Positions 1 to 58,320 of a stretch of 64,000 nucleotides of DNA are shown piece after piece (the first letter of the stretch is position 1; each line of letters opens with the position of its first letter). The position numbers were made by a program, and so were the translations under genes. Source of the DNA: Haplodiscus bocki (Eukaryota). The DNA lies in contig OZ296653.1 in the NCBI GenBank assembly GCA_965655095.1, positions 83,266,001 through 83,330,000 on the forward strand, in the 5' to 3' direction. The notes under the pieces were generated by a model that was not told the origin of the DNA, ran no database searches, and saw only the letters and a list, made by a program, of their open reading frames with translations.

Positions 1-240
1 ATTCTTTTACTTTTACAACCATTTATAAGTCAACAAATATGATTAAGTGATTATATACTTTGAGAATTATTACATTTATATAAGATTAAATTCAGTCGAT
101 AGAAAACGATATTTATTTATTTTATCATCCTCACTTGAGGTTTTTATATGTTTAAGCAACTTAAATTCTTCTCGGTTGTTGAAGACGATAACTAGGAGTC
201 ATTGAATTATAATACGAAAAGATTGTTATCGTTAAATTGT

Positions 241-639
241 TTATAATGATGAACGAACTAGCTTAATCTCTTTTAACATTGCGCGAAGAAATATATATTC
301 GCGTATTTCTTTACTTACAGAAAATTCATAATAAAAATATCCTCCATTTTGGAATTTATAAAATTGAACACTTCGTTTATCACCACTTACGCATATACTT
401 AATTCCTCATCATAAACATTACAATTTACAGCAGTCTTAAATAAAAAAAACCTAGAACGACTTTCGTTGATATAGTGACGATGAGTTTTTTCAACATCTT
501 CCCAATGGACATCTCCAATAACATGTTTGTTTATTACATAATTATAATCCATATATGAATGTGTTTTTGATTTCATATGATTTGCTTTAGATTTTCGATT
601 AATCACAACGTCACATATCTTACAATAGTAATTCAGCAT
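241..639 (-). pseudogene. Zinc-finger (CxxC...HxxxxxH) viral accessory protein; continues out of frame toward the window start
   Basis: YCKICDVVINRKSKANHMKSKTH. The downstream residues resemble the paralog at 2059-2610. Confidence 0.6.
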
Positions 640-671
640 TTAATTGAGAAAAGTTTCTTTGAAATGTTTTT

Positions 672-986
672 TTATTCATAATCATTCAAAAATGGTTCTG
701 TCACCTTCTGTTGTACTAGTTTTTGAAATGAGAGCATGTATAATATATTTTCTCTTAAATTGGGAATATTCTCAATAATATTTTCAAAAATATTATCATG
801 AATTTTTAATATTATATCGTCTATTATAGACAAACTTACAAGAATCCTACTATGCGCAATTGTTTTATAAAAACTATTAATTATACATTTTCGTACTTGA
901 TTCAGTTCGCAAGTAATTCCTATACTTTTATAATCATAAAATATTGCAGCATTACAAAAAATTGAATTGTCTTTCACTGTTTCCAT
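672..986 (-). CDS. Hypothetical Maverick protein
   Basis: 104-aa ORF with a TAAATG start in the gene-dense viral region. Confidence 0.45.
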   Translation of the reverse strand: METVKDNSIFCNAAIFYDYKSIGITCELNQVRKCIINSFYKTIAHSRILVSLSIIDDIILKIHDNIFENIIENIPNLRENILYMLSFQKLVQQKVTEPFLNDYE

Positions 987-1052
987 TTAGATAAAAAAAA
1001 ATCCTGATAAATTTCCAGCGTTGTAGTTTCACAATTCAATTTATTTAAAGTT

Positions 1053-1560
1053 CTAGTCATAATTTGAATGAATTTTATATGTTCTTAATTTTTTAAACGA
1101 GTTTTTTCCATATTTAGAAATAAGATAATCAACTGATTTGAATAAATCGTCATCAATTATTTTTCGTTTATTAATAAATTTAAAACAGGGAGTTAGAAAA
1201 TAAATATTTTCCCAACCTATTGCAACACTGTATGGAGTTAAATTATTCCCCATATTTGAGATGTATTTATAAATTTCATCATTAGTTAGAAAAGAACATA
1301 TCATATCACCTCCAATATATACGTAACTATGTTTATCATTTTCTTCACCTATTTTAAGCAAAATAGTATTTCGATTAAAAACTTCTTTATCCTGAGCTCC
1401 CGAAAATTAAGTCATATCACATAGTTGACTTTCACCCAAAAATGTTTCCATAGGATTGACCTTGTGTATATTATTTTTCTGATCAGAAACATCTCTAAGT
1501 TTTTGTACTTTAACCCATCCTTTATTCTGAAAAGGTACACCATAGCATTCACAATTATTT
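1053..1560 (-). pseudogene. Hypothetical protein resembling a family seen in large DNA viruses
   Basis: GNTILL..YVYIGG..F.T.DEI.KYISNMGNNLTPYSVAIG.ENIYFL pattern. The 5' part is disrupted. Family resemblance is from memory only. Confidence 0.45.
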
Positions 1561-1824
1561 TCCGTTACATATATAATCGTCATTTATATTAAATAAAATT
1601 ACATGATCAAAATAATCTCCAAGATTTTTAATTCTACTACTTTTGATTTTTAATTCTACATCTAAATCTGTTATTAATTCTTTAAGAATAACAATCTGAA
1701 TCAAACAATCATATCCTATTTTTGATCGATAACGATAACGTAATCTCATATATCTATCTAACATTTCATTTATTTTAGAATGTATTTGTGGATCTTTTTT
1801 AATTACATCTATAAAATCATTCAT
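1555..1824 (-). CDS. Hypothetical Maverick protein
   Basis: 89-aa ORF with a TAAATG start, divergent from the gene at 1885. Confidence 0.45.
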   Translation of the reverse strand: MNDFIDVIKKDPQIHSKINEMLDRYMRLRYRYRSKIGYDCLIQIVILKELITDLDVELKIKSSRIKNLGDYFDHVILFNINDDYICNGK

Positions 1825-1884
1825 TTATCATATGGAGAAAATTAAGACCTTATAAAATCATTTCAAGTAATTTTATCTAAAGAA

Positions 1885-2058
1885 ATGAATAGTGAAAATT
1901 ATGAAGTTATTTACTGTGCTGATGATAATGAATATAGAGTTTATTGTGATATTTGTGATAAATTATGTATTGAAAGATTTTATAAAAATCATCTGAAATC
2001 ACTAACTCATACTAATAACAATCGTAAAAAAAAGATTTCAAAAATTTTAGTTGACTAA
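1885..2058 (+). CDS. Small zinc-finger protein (57 aa)
   Basis: MNSENYEVIYCADDNEYRVYCDICDKLCIERFYKNHLKSLTH...; not in the supplied ORF track. Preceded by the CATTTCAA motif. Confidence 0.6.
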   Translation: MNSENYEVIYCADDNEYRVYCDICDKLCIERFYKNHLKSLTHTNNNRKKKISKILVD

Positions 2059-2610
2059 ATGACGGAGTTACTCTGTAACGTATGCGATCATGAGATATTC
2101 GAAAATGAATCCGAACGTAACAAATATCTAGCTACTTTACGTAAGAAAAATGATAAAAGTTTTTATACAAAATATACTATTAATAAAGTTAATTTGGATG
2201 CATTCGATAAAATTTTAAACAATTCTATCATTACTCATAATAAAAAATATGATTTCTATTTTATTAAATGTGAATTCAAAATAGAAATTGATAATAATTT
2301 CACAGCAAATATAGAATATAATTATCATTATAATACGGACACTAAAAATATAAAGAGTTATTTATTATTTTATATTGATAGTTGTGAATCAGGAGGATAT
2401 AAATTTAGTAATATCAATTATGTGATTATCAACACAATTAGTTGTATGTGTAATATGACATACGAAAATTAGATTAATCAACCAATGCAGGCGATTGAAT
2501 TAGGATTAAACATGATTATTGTTAAAAATCCAGAATTGATTAATGCTCTTGACAGAAATAAAAATCATCCTCTAATCAGAAAATATTCTCACATACCATT
2601 TAATAATTAA
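2059..2610 (+). pseudogene. Cys-containing accessory protein, paralog of 241-639
   Basis: LCNVCD N-terminus. The frame continues past a premature TAG at 2470-2472 to ...HPLIRKYSHIPFNN*. Confidence 0.55.
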
Positions 2611-2859
2611 TGATAAAATTAAAAGATTTCTTTTTTATTAGATGGAATTTATAAAATAATTTTACAATTAAAATTATAATTATATTTATTATTCATATAT
2701 GAATATTTGTGATTATCCAAATCATTAGCAATTCAGTATAAGATAACATATTCATACAAATATAATAATAGTTATAATTCGTGTAAGAGTGATTATACAA
2801 TATCATTCATTTCACAAAATCTTAGAATTTCTTTGTATTCGTAAACTATGCTTAAATAA

Positions 2860-3093
2860 ATGAACATATCAAATGTTATGAATGATTATGATAAAATCAC
2901 ATCTAGTAATTATACAAATATTTTAAATGATTATGATAATATTACAGATACAAATATATGTACAAACAATGAAAATAATATTGATATAACTATACCATCA
3001 TTATTACTAACTTTACCATGTGGTCTATCATTTTTATGTTTGATGAGATTGATGGTATACACATTAATTAAACCTTTATTCAATAAAAAATGA
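2860..3093 (+). CDS. Small Asn-rich membrane protein
   Basis: NDYD repeats followed by hydrophobic IPSLLLTLPCGLSFLCLMRLMVYTLI. Confidence 0.5.
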   Translation: MNISNVMNDYDKITSSNYTNILNDYDNITDTNICTNNENNIDITIPSLLLTLPCGLSFLCLMRLMVYTLIKPLFNKK

Positions 3094-3820
3094 TGGATAA
3101 AACTTTATACCCAAATCATCCAGTTAGGTGTATTATAACCGGATCATCAGAATGCGGCAAATCAGTATTTCTAACAAATTTAATTTTAAATATTATTAAC
3201 GAACATGATAGAATATATATCTAATCACCTAGTCTTCATCAAGATTTATATCAAAGATTAATTAAATGTTTTAGTAATTATATACCTATTCACATAATCC
3301 CAAACATTTTAAATGAAGAAGATATTGATATAGTAATTGAAGAGATAGTTAATAAGAAAGACTTTGAAAAATCAGATACTGAGAGAGAGACATATGAATC
3401 AATTGAAGAATTGAAATTTCCTCAAGAATATGAAGATGGTGGTATCATTATACTATATGATCTCAATGAAAAAGAAATGAATGATCCTAGAGTACAAGCA
3501 ATGTTCAAACGATCAAGACATAATAACCTATCTATTTTTAGAATCTCCTAAGATTACTACGAACTACCAAAGGAAACAATTAGAGCTAATGGAAATATCT
3601 ATCACATATTTAAACCAAACAATTTCTTAGACCTTCGTTATATTTATCAAGACAAAATTTCTATGGATATATGAGTCTCAATGAATTCAAATTATTAACA
3701 TCTACTTGTTGGAATGAAAAATATCAACCACTTGCTATTGATATGACTAAAGATAAATACTGCGGCCGTTATAGATTAGGATTAAATTCAATATTTGTAC
3801 CAAATAGCAGTCCTTTTTGA
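3093..3820 (+). pseudogene. A32-like DNA packaging ATPase
   Basis: Walker A ITGSSECGKS, degenerate Walker B IIILYDL, RSRHNN and IRAN motifs. Internal stops and a frameshift. Confidence 0.88.
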
Positions 3821-3828
3821 TTATTTAA

Positions 3829-4717
3829 ATGAGTATTTATTCTAATGTAACTGAACAAGATCTTACCAATTTAAGAAAATTAGCAGAATAACAGAAAGAA
3901 CAACGAGCTCCTAAAATCAAAAATAGAATCTTAAAACAAACTCATGATATAAAACTCGCAGAATCCCTATCACCTATCACTAAAAAAGTAGATGAGACTA
4001 CTAAAAAACTAAGTGAAGTTATTAAAAAATCAATTTCTCAAAATGAAAATAAGCAAGAGATAGTCCCGATTGAAATTGAATCAGAAGATGAAAATATTCA
4101 AACTAATTTAAGAGCCCTTCCGAATAGTTCCATTTTTAGTGCCTTAAAGACAAAAACATTAGGGAGATTATTGTCTAGTTCCAATTCTCTAAAAATAAAA
4201 TCTGGTCTTTTTGGTGCAACAATACTCGGTGTTCCCATATATACTCTAGGAGAAGATAAACTGAGAATACGTGATAAAATTTATGATTTAACTCCCGAAA
4301 TTTACAAAGCACTATCTTATACAGGATATACTGGTAATACTATGAAAAATGAAAATGATATTTTAATGTTGAATAATATTATAAACGATTTAGGTTATAC
4401 AGGCGTTGGAGATAGAGATTCAAAACGAAAAACATTTTTAACAATAACACTTCCTAAATTAGTTAATGATATTCGAGAAAAAAACATTTGAAATTACAGA
4501 CGACTCTGATGATTTACAAGAAGGAGTGAAAATTATCTTCCCTTCAAACATAGTTGATATTTACACCAGACTTGAAAAATTACTAGGATTAAAATTATCA
4601 GGCCATACCGATACTCTCACAGAAGCTAGCAATTTAATAGATGAATTATATAGGAGAGGTGAAATACAAAACGAACAACAATATCGAAATGCTCCTAATA
4701 AATTTCAAAAACAATAA
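3829..4717 (+). pseudogene. Conserved Maverick coiled-coil/core-like protein
   Basis: Disrupted ORF ending in PSNIVDIYTRLEKLLGLKLSGHTDTLTEASNLIDELYRRGEI, a motif typical of Polinton proteins. Confidence 0.6.
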
Positions 4718-5503
4718 ATGGAACTACCGAGTAAATTAATAGAACAAATAGCTTATAATACACGAGCAAAAATTGAAGAGCATATGTTGATTGTTATGGA
4801 TAAGAGCACACACGAAGAGCATGTACTTCAACCACTTCAAACGAATAAAAAAAATTTAAAATAGCAGTCACTTTTCTAACTGGTTATAACGGTATTTTAA
4901 ATGTTACGAATTCAAATAAAATTTTATTTCCTAAAATCAGTTACTGATAAAGACGGTTATATAATAATAACTATTCCACCACGTGGTTACGAAATAGAAT
5001 CATTGAACAATGAAAAAAAGAGGATCATTGTTGATGAAGAACATTATACTGAAGCAAATTATCCATTTACAATCAAACCAAACTTTTCAACACTATGATC
5101 AATTATAGAAATATCCACTCAAGGACCTGTAAAAACATTCGCTCCCGATGATAGTATAGATCTTCTAGGATTTAATAGGACTACAAAAATTGAAGAATAT
5201 AACCTATCACCTAATCCTGGTGATATTTTATCGTTTGACAATATTTTTCTCGAATGTGATATTGCTCAAGGTATGATTTATCGAGGAAAACGAAGTTTAA
5301 TTATTCATAATTTTACTATGGATGTTGATCCTGGGTATAAATACATAGAAAAATTTCGTGGTGGAGAGCAATGATATATGATGGAAAGTAAGGATATTAT
5401 TTCAAGCATTTGTTTCAAGTTGAAAAATGAAAATGGAAACTTAGTATCATTTAATGGCCAATCGCTTACATTCAGATTATCAATTAAAGAAATTAATTCT
5501 TAG
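4718..5503 (+). pseudogene. Minor capsid protein (penton, single jelly roll)
   Basis: ITIPPRGYEIESLN, LLGF, NIFLECDIAQG, DVDPGYKYIE, FKLKNENGNLVSFNG motifs; located upstream of the MCP. Frameshifts present. Confidence 0.8.
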
Positions 5504-5505
5504 AA

Positions 5506-5661
5506 ATGCCTAGAACAATAAAAAAATCGAGATTACATTCTAATGAACATAAAACTAAAATTAAAAAAGAAGTGAATAATACTAAATCAAATTTACCTCA
5601 ACATCTTCAAACATTTAAACAGAAACTTCTATCAGGAAAGGGTTTTTTAGTATATAAATGA
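5506..5661 (+). CDS. Small basic putative core protein (51 aa)
   Basis: Lys-rich MPRTIKKSRL... ending LLSGKGFLVYK, which contains an adenain consensus site LxGx/G. Confidence 0.5.
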   Translation: MPRTIKKSRLHSNEHKTKIKKEVNNTKSNLPQHLQTFKQKLLSGKGFLVYK

Positions 5662-6948
5662 GCTTAGAAGAATTTCAATTAGTAGATAATGAACCATTTG
5701 ATAATAGCATCATAGAAAGAGATTTTACTAAAATTTATCACCAACTAGGAGCACAATTAAATCAATCAGATCAAAATATTGAATTCCTTTTTGGGCGAAA
5801 ACAATAATAATCATCAAATAGGCAATGGTTATCTTGAATTTAATATTACAGTACGGAAAAACGATACCACAAATTTTCATCATGAAGATCCTATTCGTTT
5901 AGTCAACAATGGTTATGCTTTCTGTTTTAAAGAAGCTCGTTTAAGCACCAGCATCGGTAGTGATATTGAACATAATAAATTTTGTGGTCAAGTATCTACT
6001 ATTATGAAAGTGATATCAAATAAAGATGATGATTTATTATCACAATTTGGTAATATTAATGAAAATGATATTCCAATTCTTGAGAGATTGGTTAATTTAC
6101 CACCTCAAATCAAATCTACACTTCATCAGAAGATGTTAATCGATAATCATACTGATCCCAACAAAGGTAAAATTAAAGGATGTTTATATTTAGAAGATAT
6201 TTTTGGATTTTGCAAAACTTTTAAGAAAGTAACTGAAAATTTAGTCTTTCACCTAACGTTTAAGACAAATGACTTACAGGATATTATATATACATCTGTG
6301 GATGATGATATGAATGTGACTATTAATAGTTTGTATCTGTTTATACCTAATCTAATTCCCAGTGTTGAAACTCAATTGATGTTTAATGAAGCCACTCAAA
6401 ATAATTATAAGATCTCTTTCGATGAATGGTACACAGAGAGACGAGTAATATCTGATATGATCTTTCAACTAGACATAGGATCAGCACAACAAGTTAATAG
6501 TCCTAAATATTCAATTTGTGCTCACCAAACAAAAGATAGGACAAACGCTTCTAATAAAAAAATTAATATTGCTATATTCGATAATCTCGATCTTAGAAAA
6601 TACCACGTTGAAATAGATAGTTTACGATACCCTAGAGAAAGTTTACTTATAAATTATGAACAAAATGATTATATTGAGCAATATTAAATTTTGAAACCAT
6701 TCTTTCACGAATATATAGAACCAATATTAAATCCTCTTATATCATATCCAGATATGAAAACAAAATACCCTATCGAAATAATAGATTTAAGACATCAACC
6801 TGATCATATAACACCTAAAAAAATTCAATTATTTCAAGAATATGGTGCTGATTCTCACAATGCTAAATTGTTTTTATTAATAGTCAGACGAAAAGAAATT
6901 GATATAATAAGTGATGGAAATAAACTCATTGAGGTTAAAGTTATATAA
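5658..6948 (+). pseudogene. Major capsid protein (double jelly roll)
   Basis: GYLEFNITV, LVNNGYAFCFKEARLS..G..IE, LEDIFGFCK, INSLYLFIP, SPKY, YP motifs. Frameshift near 5790 and a stop at 6685. Confidence 0.85.
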
Positions 6949-6950
6949 AT

Positions 6951-7354
6951 ATGACAGTTTTAAATTTTAAAGATTTTATGAAAAAAAATCAAAAAATGAT
7001 ACTATGATAGAATCTCAATTACAAAGAGTTTATAATTATTTTATATACCCCAGAGATTCAAAATTATATTCAGATAAAGGATTTGTAAATATTGATAATG
7101 GTAGTATGGGTGGATTTCATTGGACTTGTTTTATAGTAAAAGATAACAAACCATACTACTTTGATAGTTTCGGTGCTCAGCCAGCTAAATTTCTACTTAA
7201 ACAATTACCTAAACCGATAATATATCATAATTATAAAATACAAGATATAAATTCCAAATTATGTGGCTCATACTGCTTATACTTTTTCTATTTAATTGAA
7301 CGAATGAATTATTATGATGCTATTTTAAAAATGTATTTTCACGATTTTGAATAA
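6951..7354 (+). pseudogene. Adenain-like cysteine maturation protease
   Basis: Catalytic His (GFHW), Asp (YFDSFG), Gln (IQD) and Cys (LCGSYC). Frameshift in the A-run near 6985. Confidence 0.9.
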
Positions 7355-8839
7355 TGCCAATTAATGTATTTGGAAACTCTTCTCATAATAATAATAATAA
7401 CAAAATTGACACAAGTTTATTTGTACAAAAGCCATATTTGACAACTAATTATATAGAAGCTAATATAGAAGAGGATATTGACTTAAAAAATCAATTTAGA
7501 ATCAGAAATTTACCTGATCGTACTATTATTAGAGAACCAGCCTCAAAAAATTACGTTCATAATAAATTCAACGATCCTAGTATAATAAAAAAACTCTGCA
7601 CATATAGATCTGAATGATAGAAATATTACCAACGCTAGATTTATTCAAGTCAATCAATGGCATCAAATCGATTCTCATTTAACAGCTACGCTATATGTCG
7701 ATAATGCTATATCTGATGGAGTAAATGAATCATCATTATTAAGATTAGATCCTGATGAAAAATTGAAACAAGATTCTATAATTCTTAATTCTACCTTAAC
7801 ATCACCGAAAACGATATTAGAAGTACCTACTGAAAATTATGTTGATAATAAAGTTAATGATCCTAGTAAGGTAAAAAACACAGATCATGTTGACTTCAAC
7901 GATAAATATATTGATAACTTTAGTTGGATTAAAGTAAACCACATGCCTACAGTTGAAGAAAATCTAACACCAAAACTTTATGTCGATAATGCCATACACC
8001 AAATCATAGGATATACTAATGGATTGCATGAAATCATTAGAAATAGACGAGATTTATCATCAGTGTTTAATGATCAAGTCAATGAATTTGATAATAATAA
8101 ATTGACTAATTTAGATAGTGTCACTGTTAATAGAAATCCTAATTTAGATAATGAACTAGCAAACAAAAAATATATCGACGATGAATTAGATAAAAACACT
8201 GTTCTTAGATTTAATCAAACACTAGAAAACTATCTTAAAGTGTCGGTTGGAAATGACACTAATAATCATACTAAATATGATAAAAAACAAATTACAGATA
8301 CAACAATTATTAAATATCCAAACACAGGAGGATATCTATTATAGAATTCGGTTATAAAATGTAATGATAAAAATAATAATGGTAAAATACGAAACTTTAT
8401 AAAATCTACAAAAACAAACAGTCCAACGGGTTATTCCGGAGCAACGAGTTTACCTCCAATAGGTAATAGTTTCATGTATATAGAAAAGACTTCTAATAAT
8501 CATGGTAATAATTTTTTGTCAGCTTCGAACGAACAGATATTAATTATTCAAGTTAGTAATATAACATTCTACTACAACAGATTTTCAATTTTAACAAATG
8601 ATTCTTTAAAAGCAATGGGTCGTTCTAGAACTCAATTATTATTAGAAGATAATAGTTGGTCAACTAGATATACGATACCTAAAAATGATCGATATAATGA
8701 TTCATCAACTCAGTGGACGAAACCAAGTTTAAATTTTACTATAGAAAATTATGGTATTAGATTAATATATGATGAAATAGATAGAGCTCACGCTGATATG
8801 TGTTTCAGTAACATTACAATCACACACTCTATAGATTAA
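7354..8839 (+). pseudogene. Fibre/spike-like protein with repeated ..TK.YVD shaft motifs and a C-terminal MAM-like beta domain
   Basis: Repeats ASKNYVHN, TATLYVDN, TENYVDN, TPKLYVDN, ANKKYIDD; C-terminal SFMYIE...ADMCFSNITIT. Split over ORFs 7354-7617, 7763-8344 and 8474-8839. Confidence 0.6.
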
Positions 8840-9300
8840 ATGAATTATGAAAGTTATTTCAAAGATTTATTCGAATCTATTCCTGATTATAGAAAAATAG
8901 TCTCAATAATATTTTTAATTCAAAATGAGAAAGATTTTGTAAAAGAATTTGGAGTTTTGAAAAATGATATTCATCGTTCAGGTTTAGAATTCAAAAATAT
9001 TTTAATGGAAGAAAATGAAGAATACTTAGATTATATTAAAAACGAAGAATAATCCATAATTGAAAAGATTTTGAATAAGTAAATGGAACAATATTTCTCA
9101 ACTATGTTTGAAGACGTTAGACATGAACGATCGTTAATATTATTATTATCATTAACAGATCCAGATATCTTAAGACAAAGCAAATTCACACATGATGAAA
9201 TAGAGATTATAAAAAATTTAGCTTTAGAAAAATAACACAGACAAAGAATTTTAAAAGAGCATGTCGCGATTGAATTGTTAAAAACAATTTTCTGACAAAT
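8840..9300 (+). pseudogene. Two small related helical proteins (starts at 8840 and 9083)
   Basis: MNYESYFKDLFESIPDYRKIV and MEQYFSTMFEDVRHERSLI share an N-terminal pattern. Both have premature stops. Confidence 0.4.
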
Positions 9301-9302
9301 AA

Positions 9303-9920
9303 ATGAATAACTATCCGAATTTAAAAAATGAACCAGAGTTGTTAAAGATAAAAACAAGAGATGATGAAATTAAAAATCTAAAATATCAAACGGAAAAACA
9401 TGATTATGAAAAAATATTAATGAGTCTTAAAATTGATAATGAATATTATAGGAAAAAATCTAAAAGTTTAAATAAAAAGAAAGTATTATTAATTATCACC
9501 GAAAAATTAATCGGATCAAGATCAGCAGTAGGTACTTCTACAATTTCGTTAACAAATCCAAGCATTGGTATAGTGCTAACTAGTTCTACTGCTTTGTTGA
9601 CGTCTCTTGCTATTTTAATCACGAATGAATATATATCAAAATTAAAATTACGTTATACAAAACTAAGAGATTGGATAAATTTTATTACAATTTTATATGA
9701 GAAAACATTAAATCAATCTATGATACATAAAAAAAATTGATGAAAAAGAAGCTCAAGAATTAAAAAAAGACTTATAATCATTACCTTGATAAACGAAAAG
9801 AAATTATGATTTCAACTAAATTCAAAGTAGAAGATATTTTTGGTGAATTAATCAGTAAAGATTCTAATTCACCAGAACAAATAACTACACTTAATAATTT
9901 TCTAGCGAAAATAAGGTAAT
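9303..9920 (+). pseudogene. Coiled-coil protein with a hydrophobic hairpin (putative membrane protein)
   Basis: GTSTISLTNPSIGIVLTSSTALLTSLAILIT; frameshift near 9735. Confidence 0.5.
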
Positions 9921-10183
9921 TTTAAACAAAACTTAATTTCAACTTTTTTAAACCTAAAAAGAAAACAAATATTGATTATCAACCGAGTGCTCCTCCCTAT
10001 TACGAACAAATTTTCAATTATTAATTGACAAAGACATGGTGTGTTGGTGGAAGACATTAGAGTAATACTATTAATATAACTGAATATGAAAAGAGAAATC
10101 CTAAGACTAAAAGACTCGTTAAAATTATCAAAGGAAAGTGTAGTTTTTGCAATCGAAACAAATCACCAATTTTTACTAAATAA

Positions 10184-10612
10184 ATGACTAGAGGAGAAAA
10201 ATTTTTTAAAAATGCTAAATGTACACATGGGCATAGATCAGCTATGTCAAATTCAGCATGGTGTGACCTAAATAAAAATTGTACTGTTTTGAAATTACAC
10301 GATATGTGTCATAATCCTAAGTGTAAATGTCAAAAACAAATTACTTTCAGTCCAAACCAATTTCAATTGGATGGTGATGGTTTTAAAAATACTATGAAAA
10401 AAATTTTTACGGGGACACAATCAGCTTGGAATAAAGTTCTCAAACCAGCGTTAAATATGGCTAGTCCATATATCGGAATGGCTGTTAGTGCTAAGACTAA
10501 AAATCCAAAAATTGGACAATCAACGACTAATATATTGAAGAGTATTTCAGGAGGTAAAATCTTATCACTAACCGATATGTACGGACGTGGTTTAAGATTA
10601 AAAGTAATGTGA
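10184..10612 (+). CDS. Putative protease-processed virion protein with an amphipathic helix (protein VI-like)
   Basis: Intact 142-aa ORF with a Cys/His-rich N-terminus and adenain consensus sites LDGD/G, ISGG/K and MYGR/G. Confidence 0.5.
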   Translation: MTRGEKFFKNAKCTHGHRSAMSNSAWCDLNKNCTVLKLHDMCHNPKCKCQKQITFSPNQFQLDGDGFKNTMKKIFTGTQSAWNKVLKPALNMASPYIGMAVSAKTKNPKIGQSTTNILKSISGGKILSLTDMYGRGLRLKVM

Positions 10613-10641
10613 AATCATTTCAAAGATAAATTTCTAAGTAA

Positions 10642-11307
10642 ATGAGTAATTGTATTAAAGAAATATACGATTATGATTTAGTTAAACAATGTTTAAAAGG
10701 TGGAAATACCTCACTAGAGAGTAATTTTCATGAAAATAAATCAACTAAAGATGGGTTAAACTCTATCTCTAAAGGATGTATGAAAGATTATTACTTGAAT
10801 AATTCTATTAAATTAACTCAGAAACAGAAAAATTATAATTTAAAAAATCACGATCGAATAAAACCTTATAAAAACGAAAATACAGAAAAAACTAATGATT
10901 ATAATAAAAAACATATTAAACAAAGGAGACGGCCAGATATTAATTATCGTATAATTCTTATCACAAGAAGTAGAATTTATCAAGCTTTAAAAGGAATGGT
11001 TAAATCATCTTCCACAAAAGGTATTTTAGGAATAGATATTGATACTAATAAAAAGGGGATAGAATTTCAAATGACTCCAGAGATGAAATGGTGTAACATT
11101 GAGATTGATCACGTGAAACCTATTTGTATGTTTGATGTATCTTAAGATGAAGAAATAAAATAAGCATTCTCCTGGAAAAATACACAGCCCTGGCTAAAAC
11201 AAAATCATCAACTCAAAGGTAAAAAATTTAATTTCCTAGATTATCAACTGCAATTCATTAAGGCTTATCAATTTATCAAATTAAATGATCAAGAAGGACT
11301 TAATTGA
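10642..11307 (+). pseudogene. HNH-type endonuclease
   Basis: RSRIYQALKG, EIDHVKPICMFD and WKNTQP....N..KG after reading through a stop at 11143. Confidence 0.7.
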
Positions 11308-12136
11308 AACTTTTATTGATGAAAATTATAGTAAAACAGCAAAGAAAAATTATCCAATTAAAAAAATAGTTTACAACCACATTGATGAAATCTGGTCAAT
11401 TGATTTAGAAGACTTTTCAGATTATAAAACTTCATATAATAAAGGATTTAGATATATAATTTTATTTATCGATAATTTTTCTAAATATTTGTGGGCAATA
11501 CCATTGAAAAAAAGTGAAACAATAACAGATGAATTTTCAAATATTCTAACAAAATCAAAACGAAAGCCTCTAAAAATAGAGTCTGATAGAGGAGCCGAAT
11601 TTTATAATAGTATAGTTCAAAATTTTATAAACAATAAAAATATTCATCCCTATTCAAGATTCATAGACAAAGGTCCCTCAATTGCTGAAAGAGTCATCAG
11701 AAGTGTACGTAGTTTATTAAAAAAGCCCGTATTTGAAAAAGGAAATGCCAATTGGATTTCTGAACTTTCATCTGTTAATAAACAATATAATAATACTATC
11801 CACAGTTCAACGAAAAAGACCCCTACTCAAGCTAGTGAAAAATTAAATGAAAAATTAGTATATAACAATCTCAAAGACAACAGAGAAAATCAGAAACCAA
11901 AATTTAATCTAGGACAATTAGTTCGTACAGCTGATATCAAACGAGTCTTCAGTAAAGGTGATTCAACAAGTTAGTCATATATATTATAAACTATAACCGA
12001 AGTCATTCATGACACTATTCATAGCTATAGAATCGACTACTTACCCGAGAGATAAAACGAAAATCTATTACTACCAAAAAAACTAACCCTTGATGAAAAC
12101 AAAAAAGTTATGAAAGAACTAAATTTAATTCAATAA
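11285..12136 (+). pseudogene. Retroviral-type (rve) DDE integrase
   Basis: WSIDL (D), ESDRGAEF (D), IAERVIRS (E), YNNTIHSS..KTP, PKFNLGQLVR. Premature stop at 11972. Confidence 0.92.
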
Positions 12137-12707
12137 TGTAATAAATAATAAATGGAATTAACAGAAGATGAAATTATAGAAAAAATATGCCAAACACTGT
12201 GGGCATTGTAATCGAAATACATTACTACCATACGAATAAGAATTTACTTGCGTTTCATGCGGACAGAATGTAAACAAACGAAAACATAAACTATCTAAAA
12301 TTCAACGTAAAAAATAATTTTATTATTCGATTGAAATATGCAGAACAAAAAATATTTTGTATATGTATAGATGTATATAAAATTTACGAAGGTAATGATT
12401 ATGATGAAATATTTGAAATTTTATCCACATTAAAAAATAAAAAATTGAAACTAAACAATATCTTAATTGAAAAATATAAAGATATGTTAGAAAATCCTAA
12501 TTTCGAACAAGATTATTGGTCACGAACAGCAATGAGTATTAGATTAACGAAATGGTTGATTTATTACGATAGATCTTATTATGATGATATGAATTAATTT
12601 GATTTAATGGGAAGTATTTGCTTGTGCTATTGTACTTCAGTATAATTGTAAATAAGAAGAAATTTGAGATCTTGGATAAATCATTTCAAATAATTCTTAC
12701 TATATAA

Positions 12708-15700
12708 ATGGAGATGATAGCGAAAATAAAAAACTATCACGGAATAGAAAACGAAGAATTGAACGGAATATTAAAATGGATGATGAAATGAAATTATTAA
12801 TAAATAAAATTATAACAGAAAAGAAAAAAAGAAAAATATTAATAAAATTAAGGAGTTAGAAATTAAATTAGTTGAAATTATATATTCAAACAATCCTAAT
12901 ATATTACAATCTGCTTTGAAAGAGTTAAATAAAAGTCAAGTTGTTAATAAAATTTTACATGAGATTAAACAAGAAATATTAGTAGATTATGTTGGTGAAT
13001 TTGAACTGGTCGGTAATTTAAAAGTTGGCGATCAAATCAGACAAACTCATATTAGATTATAAAATATTTCTGATTATGAAGCATATGTTAATAGCATTGA
13101 TGAAGGTTACGACAGTCAAGATAGTATTTTTCAGGGTTATATTTATAAAGTCAATACTCCTCAATTTAATTTAGTTAATAGAAGTCAATATGGTAATGGT
13201 TGTGATTTTAAACATGAAATTATTGAATATCGAGGTAAAAAATGCTTTATACCAACTAAAGGTTCTTGCTTTGTTAAATGTATTAAATTCATAACAGGTG
13301 AAGATTAGAAACAACAATATCTAGACTTTATCCGAAATGGAAAAAAAGAACAAATATTATGACAAAAGCTAGAATTCAACCATTTTGTAGAGCTAATATT
13401 ATTAATTTAGGATATTATAACGGTGATAGAGTCTTTCCTAGATCTGTTACAAATAGAGATAGTGCTTTGTTTTTGTACAAAAATCACTTTTGTGTAATAT
13501 GGAAATCGGAAGGTGTTAGTTTTAATCAAGGTATTAAAGAATTAGAAGATTATTCAAAAATAGTTATTAATTATATAACTGAAGAAAATGTTAATTCTCA
13601 TTTTAAATATGAATTCATACAAAAGAAAATTGAATCTCATCTGATTAATTTTATTGTATAAGATCTTGAAACTCGTAACACTGATAGAGCTAGACCTTAT
13701 TGTATTTCATTTTATCGATTAAGTAAATTAGAAGTAGATATAATCGTGATTTGACACCATATGAAATAGATAAAAGTAAAAGAGACACTTTAGTATTTGA
13801 TGGAGGCAATTGTAACAGTAATGCTTTAGATTTTTTAATTAAAATTCAAAGGAGAAGGAAAAGTTAAAAATAAAATTGTTGAATATAACATTCAATTACA
13901 TGCCCATAATGGATCAGGTTTCGATACTTGGATTATATTAAATAATCTCCCTTGTGATAAACATATTGTTGATATTATTAAAAATGGAAAAGGAATAAAT
14001 TCTTTAAAAGTTTTCAATGGTTAAATATATAATGGTAAAAAACAAATTCCTGAATATCTAATTTTTAGATGTGGTATGACTCATTTAAATCATTCGTTGA
14101 AAAAATTAGGTAAGACTTTTAAATTACAAAAAGAATTATCAAAAACTGAAATGAATCACATTAAAGTAGATGGTAATAATTATAAAGACAAAAAAGACGA
14201 ATGGTTAGATCATGTTAGGAATGACGTATTATGTACTGCTTTTTCATAAGCGAGATATAGGAAAGCTATGAAAGAAATAAAAGGATTTTCTATGAAGGAT
14301 TGCTTGTCTTTACCAGGCTTAGGATAGAAATATTTTAACTCGTTAAGAACAGAAGAAGACGAGCCTATATACACTTATAATGATCAATACATGAGATGGT
14401 TTGTTCGTCAATCAATAAAAGGAGGGCGAGTATGTGCATTTAATCAATATTATAAATCAAAAATTTGTGATGATATCGAGAAAAATATATCAGAAGAATT
14501 AAATGTTGAAGGAAATATTTATAATAATATAGAAACTTATTTGAATTATAAGAACAAACATTATAAAGATTATGAAGAAGAATTTGAAAGTAAATTTAAC
14601 GATTATAGAGATGAGGATGTTGATGAAAAAGAAAAATGTATCAATGAAAAATTAAGTCAACTCCCTATACATCAATTAATAAAACAAATAAAATTAGATG
14701 AATTATTATGGGATTTCGATGCTGTGAGTTTATATCCTAGCGCCATGTGGGATGAAAACAGTATTTATCCTAAAATCGAAGCGGGATATGCTTTTACAAG
14801 AGATATGAATGACGAACTTGTTGAAAAATTTAAAAATCAAACTTTTAAACAAGGGTCTGCTATATTGAAAATAAAATATTATAAACCAAAAAAATTAATG
14901 GTTCAACATCTTCCTGTTAAAGAAAAAGGAAAGAAAATTGAAATTAACCGTATGAGAAACGGATATATTATAGACCATCTAATATCTGCTGATATTTAAG
15001 TAAGCGTCAAAATTGGTGGAAAAGTAATTGAGATATACGAAGGTGTTATTTATCGAGAAAATTTTAAAGTAAGTCCATTTAGAAAAGTTATTGATAAATT
15101 GTTTACTTCAGGACAGAAAAATAAGGATGAAAATAATGAAGTTATGCATTTATTAGAGAAATTGTTGATGAATAGTTTGTATGGAGAAAATATACGGAAA
15201 GACATCGAGGAGAAGTTCGCTTGTAAATCAGAAGCTTGGATGATGACCGAATATGATGAAAGAGTAAAGGATTATTGGAAAACATCAGGTAATAATTACA
15301 TTGTTAAAATGATAGATGACGCTGGATTGGAATATGAAGTTAAAAAATTGAATACCATGCCACTTCACTTAGGCGCTTTTGTTTTATCAAACAGAAAAAG
15401 AATTATGAATAATTTCATACACGCAACTAATGGATTTTATACAAATGATGTTTATTACGGAGATACCGATAGATTATATATTGGAAACAAACATTGGGAT
15501 AAATTGGACAAAGCTGGTTTGGTTGGTAAGAATTTACTACAAGGAAAGAAAGATTATAAGGAGGGAGGTATTTTTTAAGGATTGTTTCTAGCACCGAAAA
15601 TAGAATATTGCCTCACTATAAAAAAATACGGTGTTATAGACGCACATAAGACTTTCAAAGGATTTACCAGTGTGTCTGATAACTTAGACAGAAAAGAATA

Positions 15701-15947
15701 CTTTAAAATAATTGGAGGAGATAAATTAGTAGCAAAAGTGCTTCTTAGTTGGAAAAAGTCATTTAGTCTAGGAGTTGTAATTCCACATAAAATGAAAAAT
15801 TGTAATAAATGCACAAAAGATATTTTATGTGATGATTGTGATAAATCAATAAATCAGAGAAAAGAATTCTCAGCAAATCTAAATGAATTAAAACGAGAAC
15901 CTCCGAATGATTTTGGTCATATGCTTCGTAAGTATATAATCACTTAA
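12708..15947 (+). pseudogene. Protein-primed family B DNA polymerase
   Basis: ExoI DLET, ExoII HAHNGSGFD, motif A DFDAVSLYPSAM, motif B KLLMNSLYG, motif C YGDTD, FLAPK. Many lesions; start uncertain. Confidence 0.92.
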
Positions 15948-16118
15948 TCATATTTGTTGACTTATAAATGGTTGTAAAAGTAAAGGAATCCTTTGAAAAG
16001 ACTAGACATGTTAAAAATAACGACAAATCTAAAAAAATATATTCTACGAGGACGAAGAAATGCAAGATACTATGAAAAAATTCTATCTAATAAAAAGAAA
16101 TCTAATAATTTGACTTAA

Positions 16119-16745
16119 TTTTGTCAATTTTCTCGAAGATTATAATAGATACAGAGCTGAACTTTTCAGCTTAAACTAAACTTTTAATGGGCTATCCAAT
16201 GATATATCACTTATAATTGTAGCTTAAAATTTTATAATATCAATATATTTAAGGTATGTCGACATTTTGGGTTTTTGTCAATTTTCTCGAAGATTATAGT
16301 AGATATAAAGTTGATATTTTCAGGGTAAACTAAACTTTTAACGGGCTAACCAAAATATATATCGCACTTTCTTGTCGCTTAAAATTTCATAATCTTTACA
16401 TGTTTAAGGTATGTCGACATATACTGATTTTGTCAATTTTCTCGAAGATTATAATAGATACAGAGCTGAAACTTTCAGCGTAAACTAAACTTTTAACGGG
16501 CTATCCAATGATATATCATTCTCTGTTCTAGCTTAAAATTTTATTCTCCACATGTTTAAGCTAATTATCTACGGAAAAAAAGGTGTTAATTACATTTTTA
16601 GGGTTATCTCGAAGATGGTAAAAAATATGAAGTCGAAATTTTCAGGGTACACTAATTTCTTAATGACCTTTCGAATGACATATCACTCGTCAAGCTAGTT
16701 GAAAAGTTTGTTATCTCTACATGTTTAAGGTCTGTCGACATATTA
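16119..16745. repeat. Tandem array of four ~155-167-bp units
   Basis: TTGTCAATTTTCTCGAAGATTATA at ~16121, 16275 and 16430, with a diverged copy (CTCGAAGAT) at 16608. Confidence 0.9.
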
Positions 16746-19568
16746 CAAAATACACATGCACGAGACTGTGATACAATATGCATATTTTTTCTAGTTTCTC
16801 TCCTTGTATACTGCCACTTATAGCCCAGTGGTATTTGTAAAATTGACTAAGGTTAGGACTATGCTTGATTGGTAGTCACAGTGTTTGGGGTTCACTGTTA
16901 GCCAACGTCCCCCAGTCTTTGTCAACATCATGCACAGAAGCTATATGGAGGAACTGTCTATATCTTAATGCTTGAAAAAGTTGACTAGATCGATGGGGAA
17001 CGTTACCAGGAATGGTCCCTGTAAAATGCTTGAAAAAGAAGACATCAAACTTGGCCAGTGACGTTTTTGTAAAAGTTAAAAAAGATCTAGAATATGTAAT
17101 GATTTGAATAATCCTTTTCGTTTTGTAGGTCAGAAATGGATTAAAAATTGTACGTAATTTTATAATTTCATTTTTATTTCTATTAAACATAAATTTAAAA
17201 TTTCACAACGAGTAAAGCTTTAAAAAAATGGCGAGGCGTAGCAGAGAAAAAATATAAGCGAGAGGCGATAGAGAGCGAAGCGAGGGATTGAAAAGAGCCA
17301 GTGGATGTTGCCGGATAATATCAGTGGGACGAGCGATAGCAAGGAGCTACCGGTATTATCCGCAAAATCCTATATTATTATTCTCAAACTAGCTTAGGCA
17401 TCAAAGAGACATCTAATTTCAATCCGCAATTTCTAAAAAAAAATTTCTGCTTCATAATCGCCATGGCTGAGAATAATGAAAGCTTCTCAACAATGATACT
17501 GCACGAAGCGCGGGAGAAGAGGGTGCGAATGTTTGCCGGAAAAGCCCACCTGGCTTTGACGAAGAAGGGTTTCGACGAATTTGGCGAAACGTCGGATACA
17601 GGCAGGCAAGATATGGTAATCAACGGCCAACATTTCACAACGTTGACCCAACTCAACTGGACAAGAATACTCTTCAGCTTGCTGGGGAACCACATCGCCC
17701 CCACGAGACGTCTTGGTGCCGCTGAGAGCAAACGAGGATTCAGGACTACTGAATGATTCTCGATTTCAGTCAATCATTCTTAACGAGCAAAGTTAGTTCT
17801 GACTTATTAATATGACCACTCATTGAAATCTGGATGTATTAACTATGTTCGTTAGATTTGCAATGGATGCGAATGTTTGCGAGACGATTCGAAGAAGTTT
17901 TAATTTGGATATTTGTTTCAGCTACGAACACAGCTTTCCGTGTGTCAGTGTACGTATATAATTCAAGTGTACACATTCGAAAGGCCGTGTACATTACACT
18001 GCGAAAATAAAAGACGAACAAACAGAATGGGACATTCGAAAGAGACGGCGAGGGCATAACGATACACCACTGTGAAATAATGAAAATTGTCATGGATTAT
18101 AACAGATATCCAGATAGTATCCAGCATAACCAGCCCCAACAAGGTTCTTCAAGTTCAACTAAACAACAATCAAAAATTGCATGCAAGAGGGAAGCGGCTG
18201 AAGAAAACAACACCGATGAAGAAGAAGCGCCTCTGTCTCGCTTCAAATCATCCAAACGAGCAATCGGAAAGTCCGAGACAGCAATTGTCTCTCTCTTGGA
18301 CGTTAGTGAATGAACAATTCAATCAAATTTATTGTTACAAGTTCAACTATTTATAAGTCTGATTATATTGGAGTTGGTTAATGGTCTATACATATAATCT
18401 CCATTTCATTTCAAAAATACCGAATAAGAAATCATAAGGTAAAACTGTCTTTCTCTGGCGAAAAAAAATCGAATTAGCAAAAGTTAATTGTCGAAAAATT
18501 GAAAAAAGAGCCGTTGAATTGAAAAAGGACCGCGAAAAATTAATGAGAACAAAAGTAGTATTTTATGACATCGGTTGGTTTTGATCCTCTGAAACGCAAA
18601 GAGTTGAATTTCAGTTTAATTTCGGAGCTGAAATTCGAATAAAAGACTCAATGGATGCGAAAATGAAACAGGCAGAAAATTTCAGAAGTTCAAAACCCCT
18701 TCCAATTTTACTTCAGAAACGCGCCAACTCTAGCGCGCCAAACCATTTTGGTCCAGAATTCGCGACGTACATGAAATCCCAGTGGAATAAGCCACCAGGC
18801 TACAGGTACCATTGATGTGAATTGAAACTAACCGATTATATATGCAGCTCATTTGGTTAACAGCACCGTTTAATAGCTCAACTGTATCAAGTAGAATAGC
18901 GTATGAATGAAACTGAATGAACTGCAATCACAAAGAATATCTTTATGGCTTATGTAGCGGCTATATAAACTTTGAGCTTTGAGTATTCACAGAGTATTTG
19001 ATTTGTAATACTATATCAAGGAGAAATGAAATTAAACACTGTGACCGTGAAATGGTTCCACAGATATAGAATAGGAACATCGAATTGCTATAATACTGTA
19101 GGGAGCACGAAAGTGTTGGGTAACCCCCCCCCCACCTATACTACTCAGGCATATTCTCTTCTATAAAGCGTCGACTAAAAATATACAATAATGAGACGAT
19201 TTCTTCGAAAATTTGGCCTTTCCTAGTCCCGAACTAGAATCCATGGTTTGAAACTTTTTTAATACTCTCTAGACCACAGACCTTTTGGAGCTTTTAGCAG
19301 TTAACAGCCGCGAACGGCTGAAGTCAGCTCATTCCACAGGGCTTGAAACACTTGCTGTGTTCGATAGTTTCGATTTTTTCAAGAAAGTTCACCATACCCA
19401 AGGCAACTACAGCAATCGTTCGATTTTGCACCAGTCTTGTTTGTTGCATCAAATATTTTGGCGGATAGTCGATAGTGACGGTTATATGATTTTATTTCAG
19501 ACAGTAAGGCTTTCTGGTTAATTTCGCTCGGGCGGAAATAGCAGTTTAAATTTCCAGAAAAGAAAAAT

Positions 19569-30200: not shown

Positions 30201-30447
30201 ACAGGGATTTTTAGCAAGAAAATTACATTTGAAGATGATCGCGGTCGGAAGAAGTCATAATTGGTCTCACAATAACACAAAGACATCCTAGCCAGGACCT
30301 TTTCTAACAGTATACTTACAATTTAAGTTCTATTTGCCATATGTTCTATAACAGAGATGAGACTGGGTAACTCTGTTGATCTAGGACCCTTGTGACTCAA
30401 CGAAACCTGACCAGATAAAATAACTGAAAAAAGTCAACCTTAAAGTT
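24210..30447. repeat. Tandem array of ~1.8-kb units (3 units, the third with an extra ~0.8-kb internal duplication)
   Basis: TGTAATTCGGGCGCTAGGTTCATGG at ~24395, 26224 and 28040; unit ends AAA(G/A)TCAACCTT at ~26040, 27840 and 30440; segment 28315-29075 is repeated at 29075-29830. Confidence 0.93.
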
Positions 30448-30872
30448 TAGTCAAACAATTTAGTTGCAGGTTTCACAAAAGCAGAATTTTGATTGACAAG
30501 GTCAATCAATATCAATTCGCGTAATATGGATAAATTTATGCCGCTCAGGCAGAATGTCTCCCAAGTTCTAGTACCGGATATCACGTGAGAATGTCACACC
30601 GAGCGGTGTTGAAAAAAATTAAGTGAGCCCGCTGTGATTGGCTGAACGCTCCACAGCTCACTCGGTAACAATTTTATTTCCATTAAATTTAAATTCAGAC
30701 CCTGAACCAACTTGACCCATCTTACGTTTTGTATGGGTCAACCCAATGAGCCTGAACCCAGTTTTATCTCTGCTCTATAACCCATTTATTCCTATCAGTT
30801 ACAATTTGAAATACGAAAGTAATCTAAATTTTTAAATTATCCCAGAACAAATCTCATGAAGTATTTCAAAAA

Positions 30873-33745: not shown

Positions 33746-34449
33746 TATGCTGCCACTCAGTATATCTAAAAACATACTTACTTTATATAAAGACTTCATA
33801 CAGGAAATATAGAAAAAAATAGAGTAGTATTTGAAAAAGACTTGAATTAACTAATTAAAGTAATCTTAACAATAGATTCACTCAAGCAAATTATAATGGG
33901 AAATAAAATTATGAAGGTATATGTTTCAAAAACAGCTATGCACATCAGATAACAGGGCTCAACGAAAACACCTAAATACATCTGCCTTCCTTTGAACAAG
34001 TGGTGCTCTCCAACGAAGTCAAGTACATATCTTTGTGAACGGTGGTTCACAATGGGGATAAGGTTGCAAAAAATTATCACACTTCCGCTGTTATCGTCTG
34101 TGCTTTTCCAACTTGGAATAATTTTGTAGTAGCGTACTTTGTATTTTCCGATTCTTTGATGGTATAATCGTCAACATCTCCAGTTAAAAATTATTTACAC
34201 AGTAGCAGGTCCTGCCGTTACTTACACAAAGCCGTTAGATTTTCAAGAGCCTCAGTCGTTGTTCGCAACTTTTCAAGCTCATGACCCATTGGCTTATCTG
34301 TTTCTGAGCAGCTTTTAGTTCTTTTACATTACGATTGATCAGTTATCACAGGGGACTCAAAAGTAAGGTACGTAGGGAACTACAACGCAATATCTTAATT
34401 TATAGCAAATTCTTTTTCTGCTCAAAAGCATCGTTTTCGCCACATCCAT

Positions 34450-58109: not shown

Positions 58110-58320
58110 GCTGCTATGTTGCTGGTTGATTGCTAGCTGTTGCTGGGCTGCTGCAGGATGAATGCTAGTTGATGCCAAGCTGCTGCTGGTTGAAAGCTAG
58201 TTGCTGCTGTACTGCTGCTGGATAGATGCTAGTTGATGCTGTACCGCTGCTGGATAGAAACTAGTTGATGCTGTACTGATGCTGGATGGATGCTAGTTGC
58301 TGCTGAGCTGCTGCGGGATG
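58110..58320. repeat. ~30-bp minisatellite (GCTGCTGGATAGATGCTAGTTGATGCTGTA-like)
   Basis: About 7 degenerate units directly visible. Confidence 0.8.

Follow-up and report, generated by a model that had tools for sequence, protein, structure and literature searches.

A two-part signal at the gene starts of a high-copy Maverick in Haplodiscus bocki resembles poxvirus post-replicative promoters

The window analysed here, a 64-kb stretch of Haplodiscus bocki DNA, carries one copy of a Maverick, an integrated, high-copy element of 18.6 kb. Its right terminal inverted repeat lies at 15930..17379 and the left arm at L031:6748-8060, the inner end of which is window 1-60; the arms are ~1.3-1.45 kb long and 84-89% identical, and a 6-bp target-site duplication is found at 17380..17385 (plus strand), with an identical hexamer at L031:6742-6747. 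The plus strand holds an A32-like packaging ATPase (3087..3820) and a double jelly-roll major capsid gene (5658..6948), both broken in the window copy, an rve integrase that ends early (11285..11974; 229 aa vs ~285 in sisters) and a protein-primed PolB region in many pieces (12708..15947). Profile matches to PolB (PF03175) and the integrase (PF00665) are over cut-off, as are those to the capsid (PF21738) and the ATPase (PF04665) in intact sisters; the adenain-like protease matches PF00770 under the cut-off (E 0.017). No large polymerase subunit was found among the scanned ORFs. Two zinc-ribbon genes, when compared with transcription factors, gave weak TFIIB zinc-ribbon matches (E ~0.007) and nothing clear in PDB, Atlas or a homolog search, and two other accessory families had no PDB match.

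Almost every gene of this Maverick opens with TAAAT(G), the sequence that constitutes the vaccinia intermediate/late initiator. Ahead of some of these starts lies the octamer CATTTCAA, hereafter the core. On the minus strand it occupies 659..666, 16 nt before the TAAAT at 642-638 and 19 nt before ATG 639 of the Zn-finger ORF 241-639, whose TAAATG spans 637..642. On the plus strand it is found at 1859..1866, 15 nt before initiator position 1882 and 18 nt before ATG 1885 (Zn-finger ORF 1885-2058); at 10616..10623, 15 nt before TAAATG 10639 of the HNH-like ORF 10642-11145, with no T at -11, the tenth base upstream of TAAAT; and at 12682..12689, 15 nt before TAAATG 12705 at the PolB start (ATG 12708). 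The initiator at 1882 is GAAATG in the aged window copy and TAAATG in 18/20 sisters, and a T at -11 is present at three of these four sites in the window copy. The original prediction had these sites right, placing the motif 18 nt before ATG 1885, 10642 and 12708 and 19 nt before ATG 639, and it was also correct that no motif stands at this distance ahead of the capsid, ATPase and protease genes. It passed over two one-off variants of the core on the plus strand, namely GATTTCAA at 2034..2041, 14 nt before the TAAATG at 2056 of ORF 2059-2472, in whose family the core stands at 15 nt in 9/11 sisters, and TAATTCAA at 12126..12133, 15 nt before TAAATG 12149 of a zinc-ribbon gene; the latter occurs in 23/29 copies, and in sisters its site shares sequence with the end of the integrase frame. 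A fifth exact copy of the core, at 730..723 on the minus strand, lies inside ORF 672-986 with no TAAAT 15 nt on.

Five exact copies in the 16-kb element compare with ~2.4 expected, so the number of CATTTCAA alone is unremarkable and it is the position that stands out, with a rough chance of ~1e-5 even when every 8-mer and 50 possible offsets are allowed for. Across 20 copies picked by their integrase protein, TAAAT lies exactly 15 nt 3' of CATTTCAA at 47/77 sites (0.55 expected), and the ATG at 18 nt from it at just 33/77; the constant distance is therefore to TAAAT, and not to the ATG as had been proposed. The spacing is 15 nt in 82/110 core-TAAAT pairs, with the TAAAT favouring a core at 15 nt chosen where two were present. 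Moreover, the ATG falls outside TAAA in 40/96 core sites (start-to-start offset 4-17 nt, not 3) and the core-TAAA spacing is unchanged. The proposed conservation of position in other copies was borne out by the HNH site, where the core is kept in 25/29 unbiased copies, and the arrangement is far from equally frequent at random positions, given the 5,050 genome matches of TCATTTCAA-N15-TAAAT in a pattern count over Haplodiscus bocki, where N13 gives 143 and the reversed form 41. CATTTCAA thus forms the upstream part of a bipartite signal, whose second part is TAAAT, 15 bases on.

The core sits at -24..-17 relative to the predicted start, its columns are 0.77-1.00 conserved and common to unrelated genes, and it is conserved above its spacer in 8/8 clusters tested (by 0.01-0.16), with a G variant making up 19% of core sites. 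It is present in 64/68 starts of five core-motif clusters vs 31/998 internal TAAAT, and in 15/20 copies of one further set, for which the TAAAT count of 20/20 takes in upstream TAAATs in two start-altered copies. A relaxed count of 27/29 for the PolB core, which picks up the ORF 12152 site as well, was set aside.

TAAATG starts were found in 32/33 major capsid genes, 34/34 of the ORF 5497 family, 26/31 ATPase genes and 18/20 of a second capsid lineage, against a background of 242/5,216 out-of-frame ATGs. The structural genes, before which the motif had not been seen at the fixed spacing, carry the same TAAAT initiator, together with a late-type upstream T run. In the window copy, such late-type starts lie on the plus strand at the major capsid gene (5645..5660; T run including T at -11, TAAATG 5655, no core), the predicted minor capsid gene (4705..4720; TAAATG 4715), ORF 9303-9740 (9290..9305; T at -11 in 29/29 of its family), ORF 10184-10612 (10171..10186) and the integrase (11272..11287; T at -11, 32/32 in the family), and on the minus strand at ORF 672-986 (984..999) and a broken gene at 1053-1583 (1581..1596). 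The protease gene has a TAAAT-ATG start at 6946..6953 (plus strand). Although the copies counted are related and the promoter classes were drawn after the data were seen, T at -11 occurs in 371/388 starts of 16 gene families, including capsid, ATPase and integrase, against backgrounds of 35% locally and 252/998 at internal TAAAT, and in 0/68 starts of the five core-motif clusters (Zn fingers, HNH). Four weaker families fall outside the 371/388 (ORF 8840 10/23, protease 17/22, ORF 7354 8/12, ORF 1555 1/15), and both PolB and the ORF 12152 family combine the core with T at -11. The supposed HNH/integrase block divides between the classes: HNH carries the core, whereas the integrase has its own TAAATG at 11282, of the T-at--11 class, and the core in 0/32 copies.

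It is with vaccinia that this organisation is best compared. In the available text of PMC12917281, the VITF-3-dependent intermediate promoter has its core at -26..-13 and TAAA at -1..+3; the Maverick signal shares TAAA, an AT-rich core inside -26..-13 and a fixed spacer. Also shared is the lack of a T at the tenth base upstream, a base that, in the accessible part of PMC11980589, marks late and not intermediate promoters. However, the core of the element has a strict consensus (AAATCATTTCAA-like), while the portion of PMC12917281 at hand gives none for the vaccinia core, and, unlike in vaccinia, the signal sits in an integrated element without a complete polymerase, at starts predicted from sequence. 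The second class shares with vaccinia late promoters the TAAATG overlapping the start codon, the T at the tenth base within a T run and the virion genes, but four gene families of the element fit poorly and late function is here a prediction. As judged from the motifs, the two-class split matches the published vaccinia intermediate-versus-late distinction. The original prediction of a virus-specific early promoter holds insofar as the motif behaves like a virus-type promoter element, the genes concerned are a putative first-wave subset and the polymerase is likely not the host's, but the layout is that of a poxvirus intermediate (post-replicative) promoter and not an early one. Indeed, a poxvirus early promoter, A-rich and TG-interrupted on the sense strand, is ruled against by the sense core, CATTTCAA, with TGAAA seen on the opposite strand alone. 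A trans-splice acceptor reading of the core was likewise rejected, G following the core in just 34% of sites. In sense coding strands AATAAA is not depleted (0.92-1.12 of expected), which counts for the poxvirus reading, splice-like words are mildly so (0.51-0.79; antisense 0.43-1.25), and TTTTTNT, whose avoidance on the sense strand would go with poxvirus early promoters, stands in core-motif genes at 0.80 sense vs 0.75 antisense.

A homolog of the poxvirus RNA polymerase subunit Rpo18 is present in 12/39 sister copies, though absent from the window copy. The protein matches PF03293 (E 2.6e-20, 73 bits vs a cut-off of 25), and its sole PDB sequence match is vaccinia Rpo18 (E 1.9e-15). The gene has at least 150 genome matches, adjoins element genes in 30/30 fetched loci and has a median dN/dS of 0.21, indicating purifying selection. 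Core and TAAAT precede 25/25 intact Rpo18-like genes, whose promoters often drop the C and retain TT(A/C/G)AA; in one subfamily the core is CATTTAAA, the reverse complement of the divergent gene's start. The predicted fold is Rpb7-like and two-domain (TM 0.79-0.86 to vaccinia Rpo18), and the C-terminal domain lacks a ~20-residue poxvirus stretch. In sequence as well as in fold, the protein lies closest to chordopoxvirus Rpo18 (22-28% identity, against 10-14% for ASFV or cellular Rpb7), nearer than to entomopoxvirus models, and in the tree no sister of the Rpo18-like clade is resolved.

Given gene starts that match poxvirus promoters and the many copies that carry an Rpo18 gene, the element is likely a poxvirus parasite. 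The original prediction had proposed a dedicated reader; since no complete polymerase is encoded by the element, the reader is more plausibly the enzyme of a helper virus. We therefore consider it probable that the signal is a post-replicative promoter read by the polymerase of a helper poxvirus, and that this high-copy element is a virophage-like parasite of that virus. On such a reading, the pair of CATTTCAA and TAAAT would act as a poxvirus-type intermediate promoter for the helper's RNA polymerase, with transcription starting in the AAA of TAAAT and slippage giving 5' poly(A) leaders, as in vaccinia. Expression of the core-motif genes (Zn fingers, HNH, Rpo18-like, PolB) would come before that of the capsid, ATPase, protease and integrase genes. 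The helper's polymerase may take up the Rpo18-like protein and be biased or blunted by it, and the element would be an integrated, virophage-like parasite. A further-reaching version, which we hold tentatively and regard as rather doubtful, is that the Maverick copies, in their thousands, represent endogenous virophages of a poxvirus yet to be discovered and run in two stages on the intermediate/late machinery of the helper, with the captured Rpo18 either rewiring the helper RNA polymerase to favour a sequence-specific core or crippling it, as an inducible anti-poxvirus host defence.

Several known systems offer precedents. Mavirus/EMALE with CroV are likewise integrated and high-copy, carry a protein-primed PolB, an rve integrase and capsid genes, and have promoters that match the transcription system of a large DNA virus; they differ in their protist host, mimivirid helper CroV and one late motif (PMC10945749), where the present element has an apparent animal host, a two-class poxvirus grammar and a captured polymerase subunit. 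The polinton-like viruses associated with entomopoxviruses are also Maverick-related and tied to poxviruses in animals, but were found in occlusion bodies, and the main text of that report does not contain the words 'promoter', 'motif', 'TAAAT', 'transcription', 'RNA polymerase' or 'Rpo' (PMC11296320). The yeast elements pGKL1/2, as far as the available text of PMC6211774 describes them, are linear and protein-primed and combine an upstream core, ATNTGA, with a TAAAN initiator of poxvirus affinity and a poxvirus-related polymerase; they differ in being cytoplasmic and capsid-less, with their own polymerase and capping enzyme and with ATNTGA before every gene, whereas the core described here precedes a gene subset only. 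In Parabasalia, high-copy endogenous polintons have captured a Pokkesviricetes core gene from an Egovirus, KilA rather than a polymerase subunit and in a protist host (10.1101/2024.03.23.586382); 'promoter' is absent from the main text of that paper. A parasite encoding a subunit of its helper's polymerase was not found in the literature searched.

The helper poxvirus reading is weakened by the sequence specificity of the core, set against a vaccinia intermediate core without consensus, by the nuclear location of an integrated copy when the poxvirus polymerase is cytoplasmic, by the mild sense-strand depletion of splice-like words, and by the 75/96 core sites that fit TCAKTY, the consensus of the animal RNA polymerase II initiator. 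Mavericks are, moreover, generally assumed to be nuclear. The core could then be a host Pol II initiator (TCATTT), with the start at its A, a plausible 25-nt leader and TAAATG as an A-rich start-codon context, and the splice-like words would fit. However, an upstream TATA box occurs in 3/96 vs 4% background, the core spacing is tied to TAAAT even where the ATG shifts, the Rpo18-like promoters often lose the C of the initiator, three ORFs of the host in the window begin with something other than TAAATG, and the T-at--11 class and the Rpo18 gene are left unexplained, so that we consider this reading unlikely.

Still less probable is a dual use, in which host Pol II, in the nucleus, initiates at the core to make the first, provirus-freeing proteins, TAAAT being used later by a poxvirus polymerase. 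It would account for the strict core sequence, unlike that of vaccinia in the available part of PMC12917281, for the core at the PolB, HNH and Rpo18-like genes and for how a nuclear copy gets switched on, but the integrase is without a core, and two independent start sites need no strict 15-nt tie. We give an equally low rating to a polymerase that is poxvirus-related without being that of a true poxvirus, whether from another Pokkesviricetes virus or from a linear partner element that encodes a polymerase itself. The pairing of ATNTGA with TAAAN in the yeast elements (accessible text of PMC6211774) alongside the G variant, the TATTT at -15..-11 of the ASFV late promoter (from the part of PMC5294985 available) and the unresolved sister of the Rpo18-like clade would favour it; against it are the chordopoxvirus affinity of the Rpo18-like protein, far from ASFV and cellular Rpb7, and the vaccinia late signature of TAAATG with T at the tenth base, as given in the available section of PMC11980589. 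That there is no promoter at all, TAAATG being stop-start gene packing (TAA is the upstream stop in 24/31, 13/31 and 10/11 of some genes, and in none of the major capsid, HNH, ORF 9303 and ORF 3892 families) and CATTT what is left of a start codon lying back to back on the opposite strand (as CATTTAAA might suggest), is very improbable, as TAAATG persists after long, variable non-coding spacers, no divergent element-cluster gene was found to begin at either the HNH or the PolB core, and conservation of the core exceeds that of its spacer in every cluster tested.

The helper poxvirus reading bears on how animal Mavericks are transcribed and whether a helper virus is needed. Two independent genomic signs, the vaccinia-like intermediate/late grammar and a captured, selected poxvirus polymerase subunit, point to one type of helper. 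It would predict that this host, in which the present searches turned up no poxvirus, has one, and gives sequence handles for finding it; helper dependence becomes testable by reporters and 5' end mapping. The upstream scan could also be applied to further Maverick families, to learn for each whether it is tuned to a large virus and, if so, to which. For the helper genes VLTF3, Pox_Rif, Capsid_NCLDV and VETF large subunit there were 0 matches in the host assembly, where the controls were blank too. Queries of IMG/VR with the capsid and Rpo18-like proteins returned no relative. A scan of part of IMG/VR for the promoter pattern gave 121 loci, 8 of them with an ORF directly after the motif and none with an element-related protein or a coherent helper candidate; one contig had two pattern matches at unrelated genes. 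A metagenome scan recovered 7 short loci of the same Maverick family, with the same TAAATG starts.

The upstream motif is a real feature, confirmed and now extended beyond the four sites of the original prediction, all of which are located as claimed, with CATTTCAA ahead of the ATGs at 1885, 10642 and 12708 on the forward strand and 639 on the reverse strand. Its position is conserved in other copies: the HNH-site CATTTCAA is intact in 24/29 copies found by DNA and in 25/29 found by integrase protein, a selection independent of the motif. A sister sample comprised 39 further elements, each fetched as a separate 10-kb stretch. In the 20 picked by integrase, TAAAT lies 15 nt past CATTTCAA at 47/77 sites (0.55 expected) and an ATG lies at 18 nt in 33/77; among the 72 sites of the other 19 copies, the corresponding numbers are 36 and 26. 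The ATG is displaced in 40/96 sites, as in PolB variants, and there the 15-nt tie between core and TAAAT is retained. The fixed spacing stands, but its anchor is TAAAT rather than the start codon. A minor peak at 11 nt is mostly due to TAAATAAAT at the same sites. Across the genome, the pattern with N15 occurs 5,050 times, with N13 143 times and reversed 41 times, although the matches all derive by copying from a small number of ancestral sites and so represent about seven independent gene families, not thousands of units.

The element is an 18.6-kb Maverick, most of it at window 1-17379, with terminal inverted repeats, a 6-bp target duplication, PolB, integrase, ATPase and a jelly-roll capsid. 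The window copy is aged, with PolB, capsid and ATPase fragmented and ~78% identity to its best relatives, and the family is abundant in the 1.5-Gb genome (150/150 scored integrase candidates match). Tandem repeats of ~155 nt lie within the terminal repeat (window 16118-16711) and in the left arm too. PolB N-termini vary among copies, many of which have an extra zinc-ribbon gene ahead of PolB; a 1272-aa PolB-region ORF in one sister element (L107:5280-9098) combines a zinc finger at its N-terminus with an endonuclease VII match (PF02945) just below the cut-off. Spacers between structural genes (sister stretches L100-L139) range from 0 to >300 nt depending on the copy, consist of recurring AT-rich words and fold modestly (median z -1.6; 14/40 below -2); they may act as 3' end signals or represent small repeats.

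TAAATG marks the start of capsid (32/33), ATPase (26/31), predicted minor capsid (31/32) and most other families, against a background of 4.6% for out-of-frame ATGs, and for several genes its TAA never serves as the upstream stop codon. Two classes of start are present, defined on the same data as counted and in an alignment anchored at TAAAT. Class A (HNH, the zinc finger at 1885, the ORF 2059 family and an Rpo18-like gene) has TT(A/C/G)AA at -21..-17 in 64/68 and T at -11 in 0/68. In class B, made up of 16 families (among them capsid, ATPase and integrase), the core is almost never present and T at -11 is found in 371/388, a count made after four weaker families were excluded (10/23, 17/22, 8/12 and 1/15). 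PolB and the ORF 12152 family carry both marks, and the window copy is less clean, with T at -11 in 3 of the 4 original sites. In a second capsid lineage, TAAATG is found in 18/20, all 18 with T at -11. The two lineages are ~57% identical, yet have near-identical integrases in common, which suggests that modules have been swapped. Within window 1555-1887, ORF 1555-1824 (reverse strand) and ORF 1885 (forward strand) point away from each other; the reverse-strand gene lacks both marks (T at -11 in 1/15), and from its side the core reads TTGAAATG and lies at a variable distance.

The class B layout matches the vaccinia late promoter, in which TAAAT(G) overlaps the start codon and the tenth base upstream is a conserved T; intermediate promoters are described there as being without that T and AT-rich 15-19 nt upstream (PMC11980589). 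Class A matches the vaccinia intermediate layout, which has a core at -26..-13, TAAA at -1..+3 read by the polymerase and a spacer whose length matters (PMC12917281). Because its core is sequence-specific, whereas that of vaccinia is described in the same paper as lacking a consensus, class A is said to work like an intermediate promoter and is not classed as one. A related two-part arrangement is found in yeast virus-like elements (PMC6211774).

One class A gene of sister copies encodes a captured subunit that matches poxvirus Rpo18 (PF03293, 73 bits); in vaccinia, Rpo18 contributes to the capping-enzyme surface (PMC12917281). Vaccinia Rpo18 is the sole match in a PDB sequence search, and sea otter poxvirus, carp edema virus and salmon gill poxvirus are the named relatives among 60 profile matches (10 proteins looked up). 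The model (pLDDT 88.7) best matches vaccinia Rpo18 (TM 0.86), and salmon gill poxvirus in a viral library, a fold not independent of poxvirus sequences since the model alignment contained poxvirus rows. The gene has at least 150 genome matches; all 30 fetched loci (30/30) adjoin element genes, 25/30 are intact, and 25/25 of those carry core and TAAAT. Its median dN/dS is 0.21, versus 0.12-0.16 in core genes. It occurs in 12/39 elements (10/20 integrase-selected, 2/19 DNA-selected; e.g., L108:2207-2644, further loci L261-L310) and is absent from the window copy. In an 18-row tree without entomopoxvirus or egovirus rows, the element copies fall into a single clade that also takes in an unnamed long-branch row, and no poxvirus sister is resolved. 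Unnamed metagenome proteins P0273 and P0285 group with poxvirus Rpo18, though not with any named virus, and may come from unknown poxviruses. One subfamily (L291-L310, e.g., L295 and L303) carries Rpo18-like genes paired on opposite strands at a distance of 14-16 kb, apparently within both terminal repeats. Each is in head-to-head orientation to a small ORF, the start of which is formed by the reverse complement of the Rpo18-like gene's own core.

Core and TAAAT are probably a post-replicative promoter read by the RNA polymerase of a helper poxvirus, a reading for which the Rpo18-like gene is central and independent evidence. The helper's polymerase would initiate within TAAAT, class A genes would be expressed first and virion genes and integrase afterwards, and the Rpo18-like protein would enter the helper's polymerase. 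By analogy with virophages, whose promoters match those of their helper (PMC10945749), the Maverick would be virophage-like. Counted against this reading is that no helper was found in a host-assembly search for VLTF3, Pox_Rif, Capsid_NCLDV and VETF large subunit, in which the controls were blank too, as is a mild depletion of splice-like words; the same word-count test found no AATAAA depletion. The animal Pol II initiator has the consensus TCAKTY, which fits 75/96 core sites and also counts against a poxvirus polymerase, but no TATA box is present upstream (3/96, against a background of 4%), which weighs against that objection. The early promoter originally proposed is not borne out, the class A motif not fitting poxvirus early promoters as outlined in PMC5294985. 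No report of poxvirus-type promoters or Rpo18 in Mavericks was found in the literature, with supplementary gene tables and subscription journals outside the search; polinton-like viruses have been linked to entomopoxviruses, with no promoter analysis in the main text (PMC11296320).

Elsewhere in the window, 19569-21053 and 30873-33799 (reverse strand) contain host WD40 genes whose reading frames are open over long stretches. The WDR3/Utp12 protein is closer to human than to fungal chains, which suggests that the eukaryotic host is an animal. A ~1.8-kb repeat unit is present in three to four diverged copies at 24316-30450, and tandem arrays of ~120 nt and ~32 nt occupy 54326-55009 and 58078-58333, respectively.
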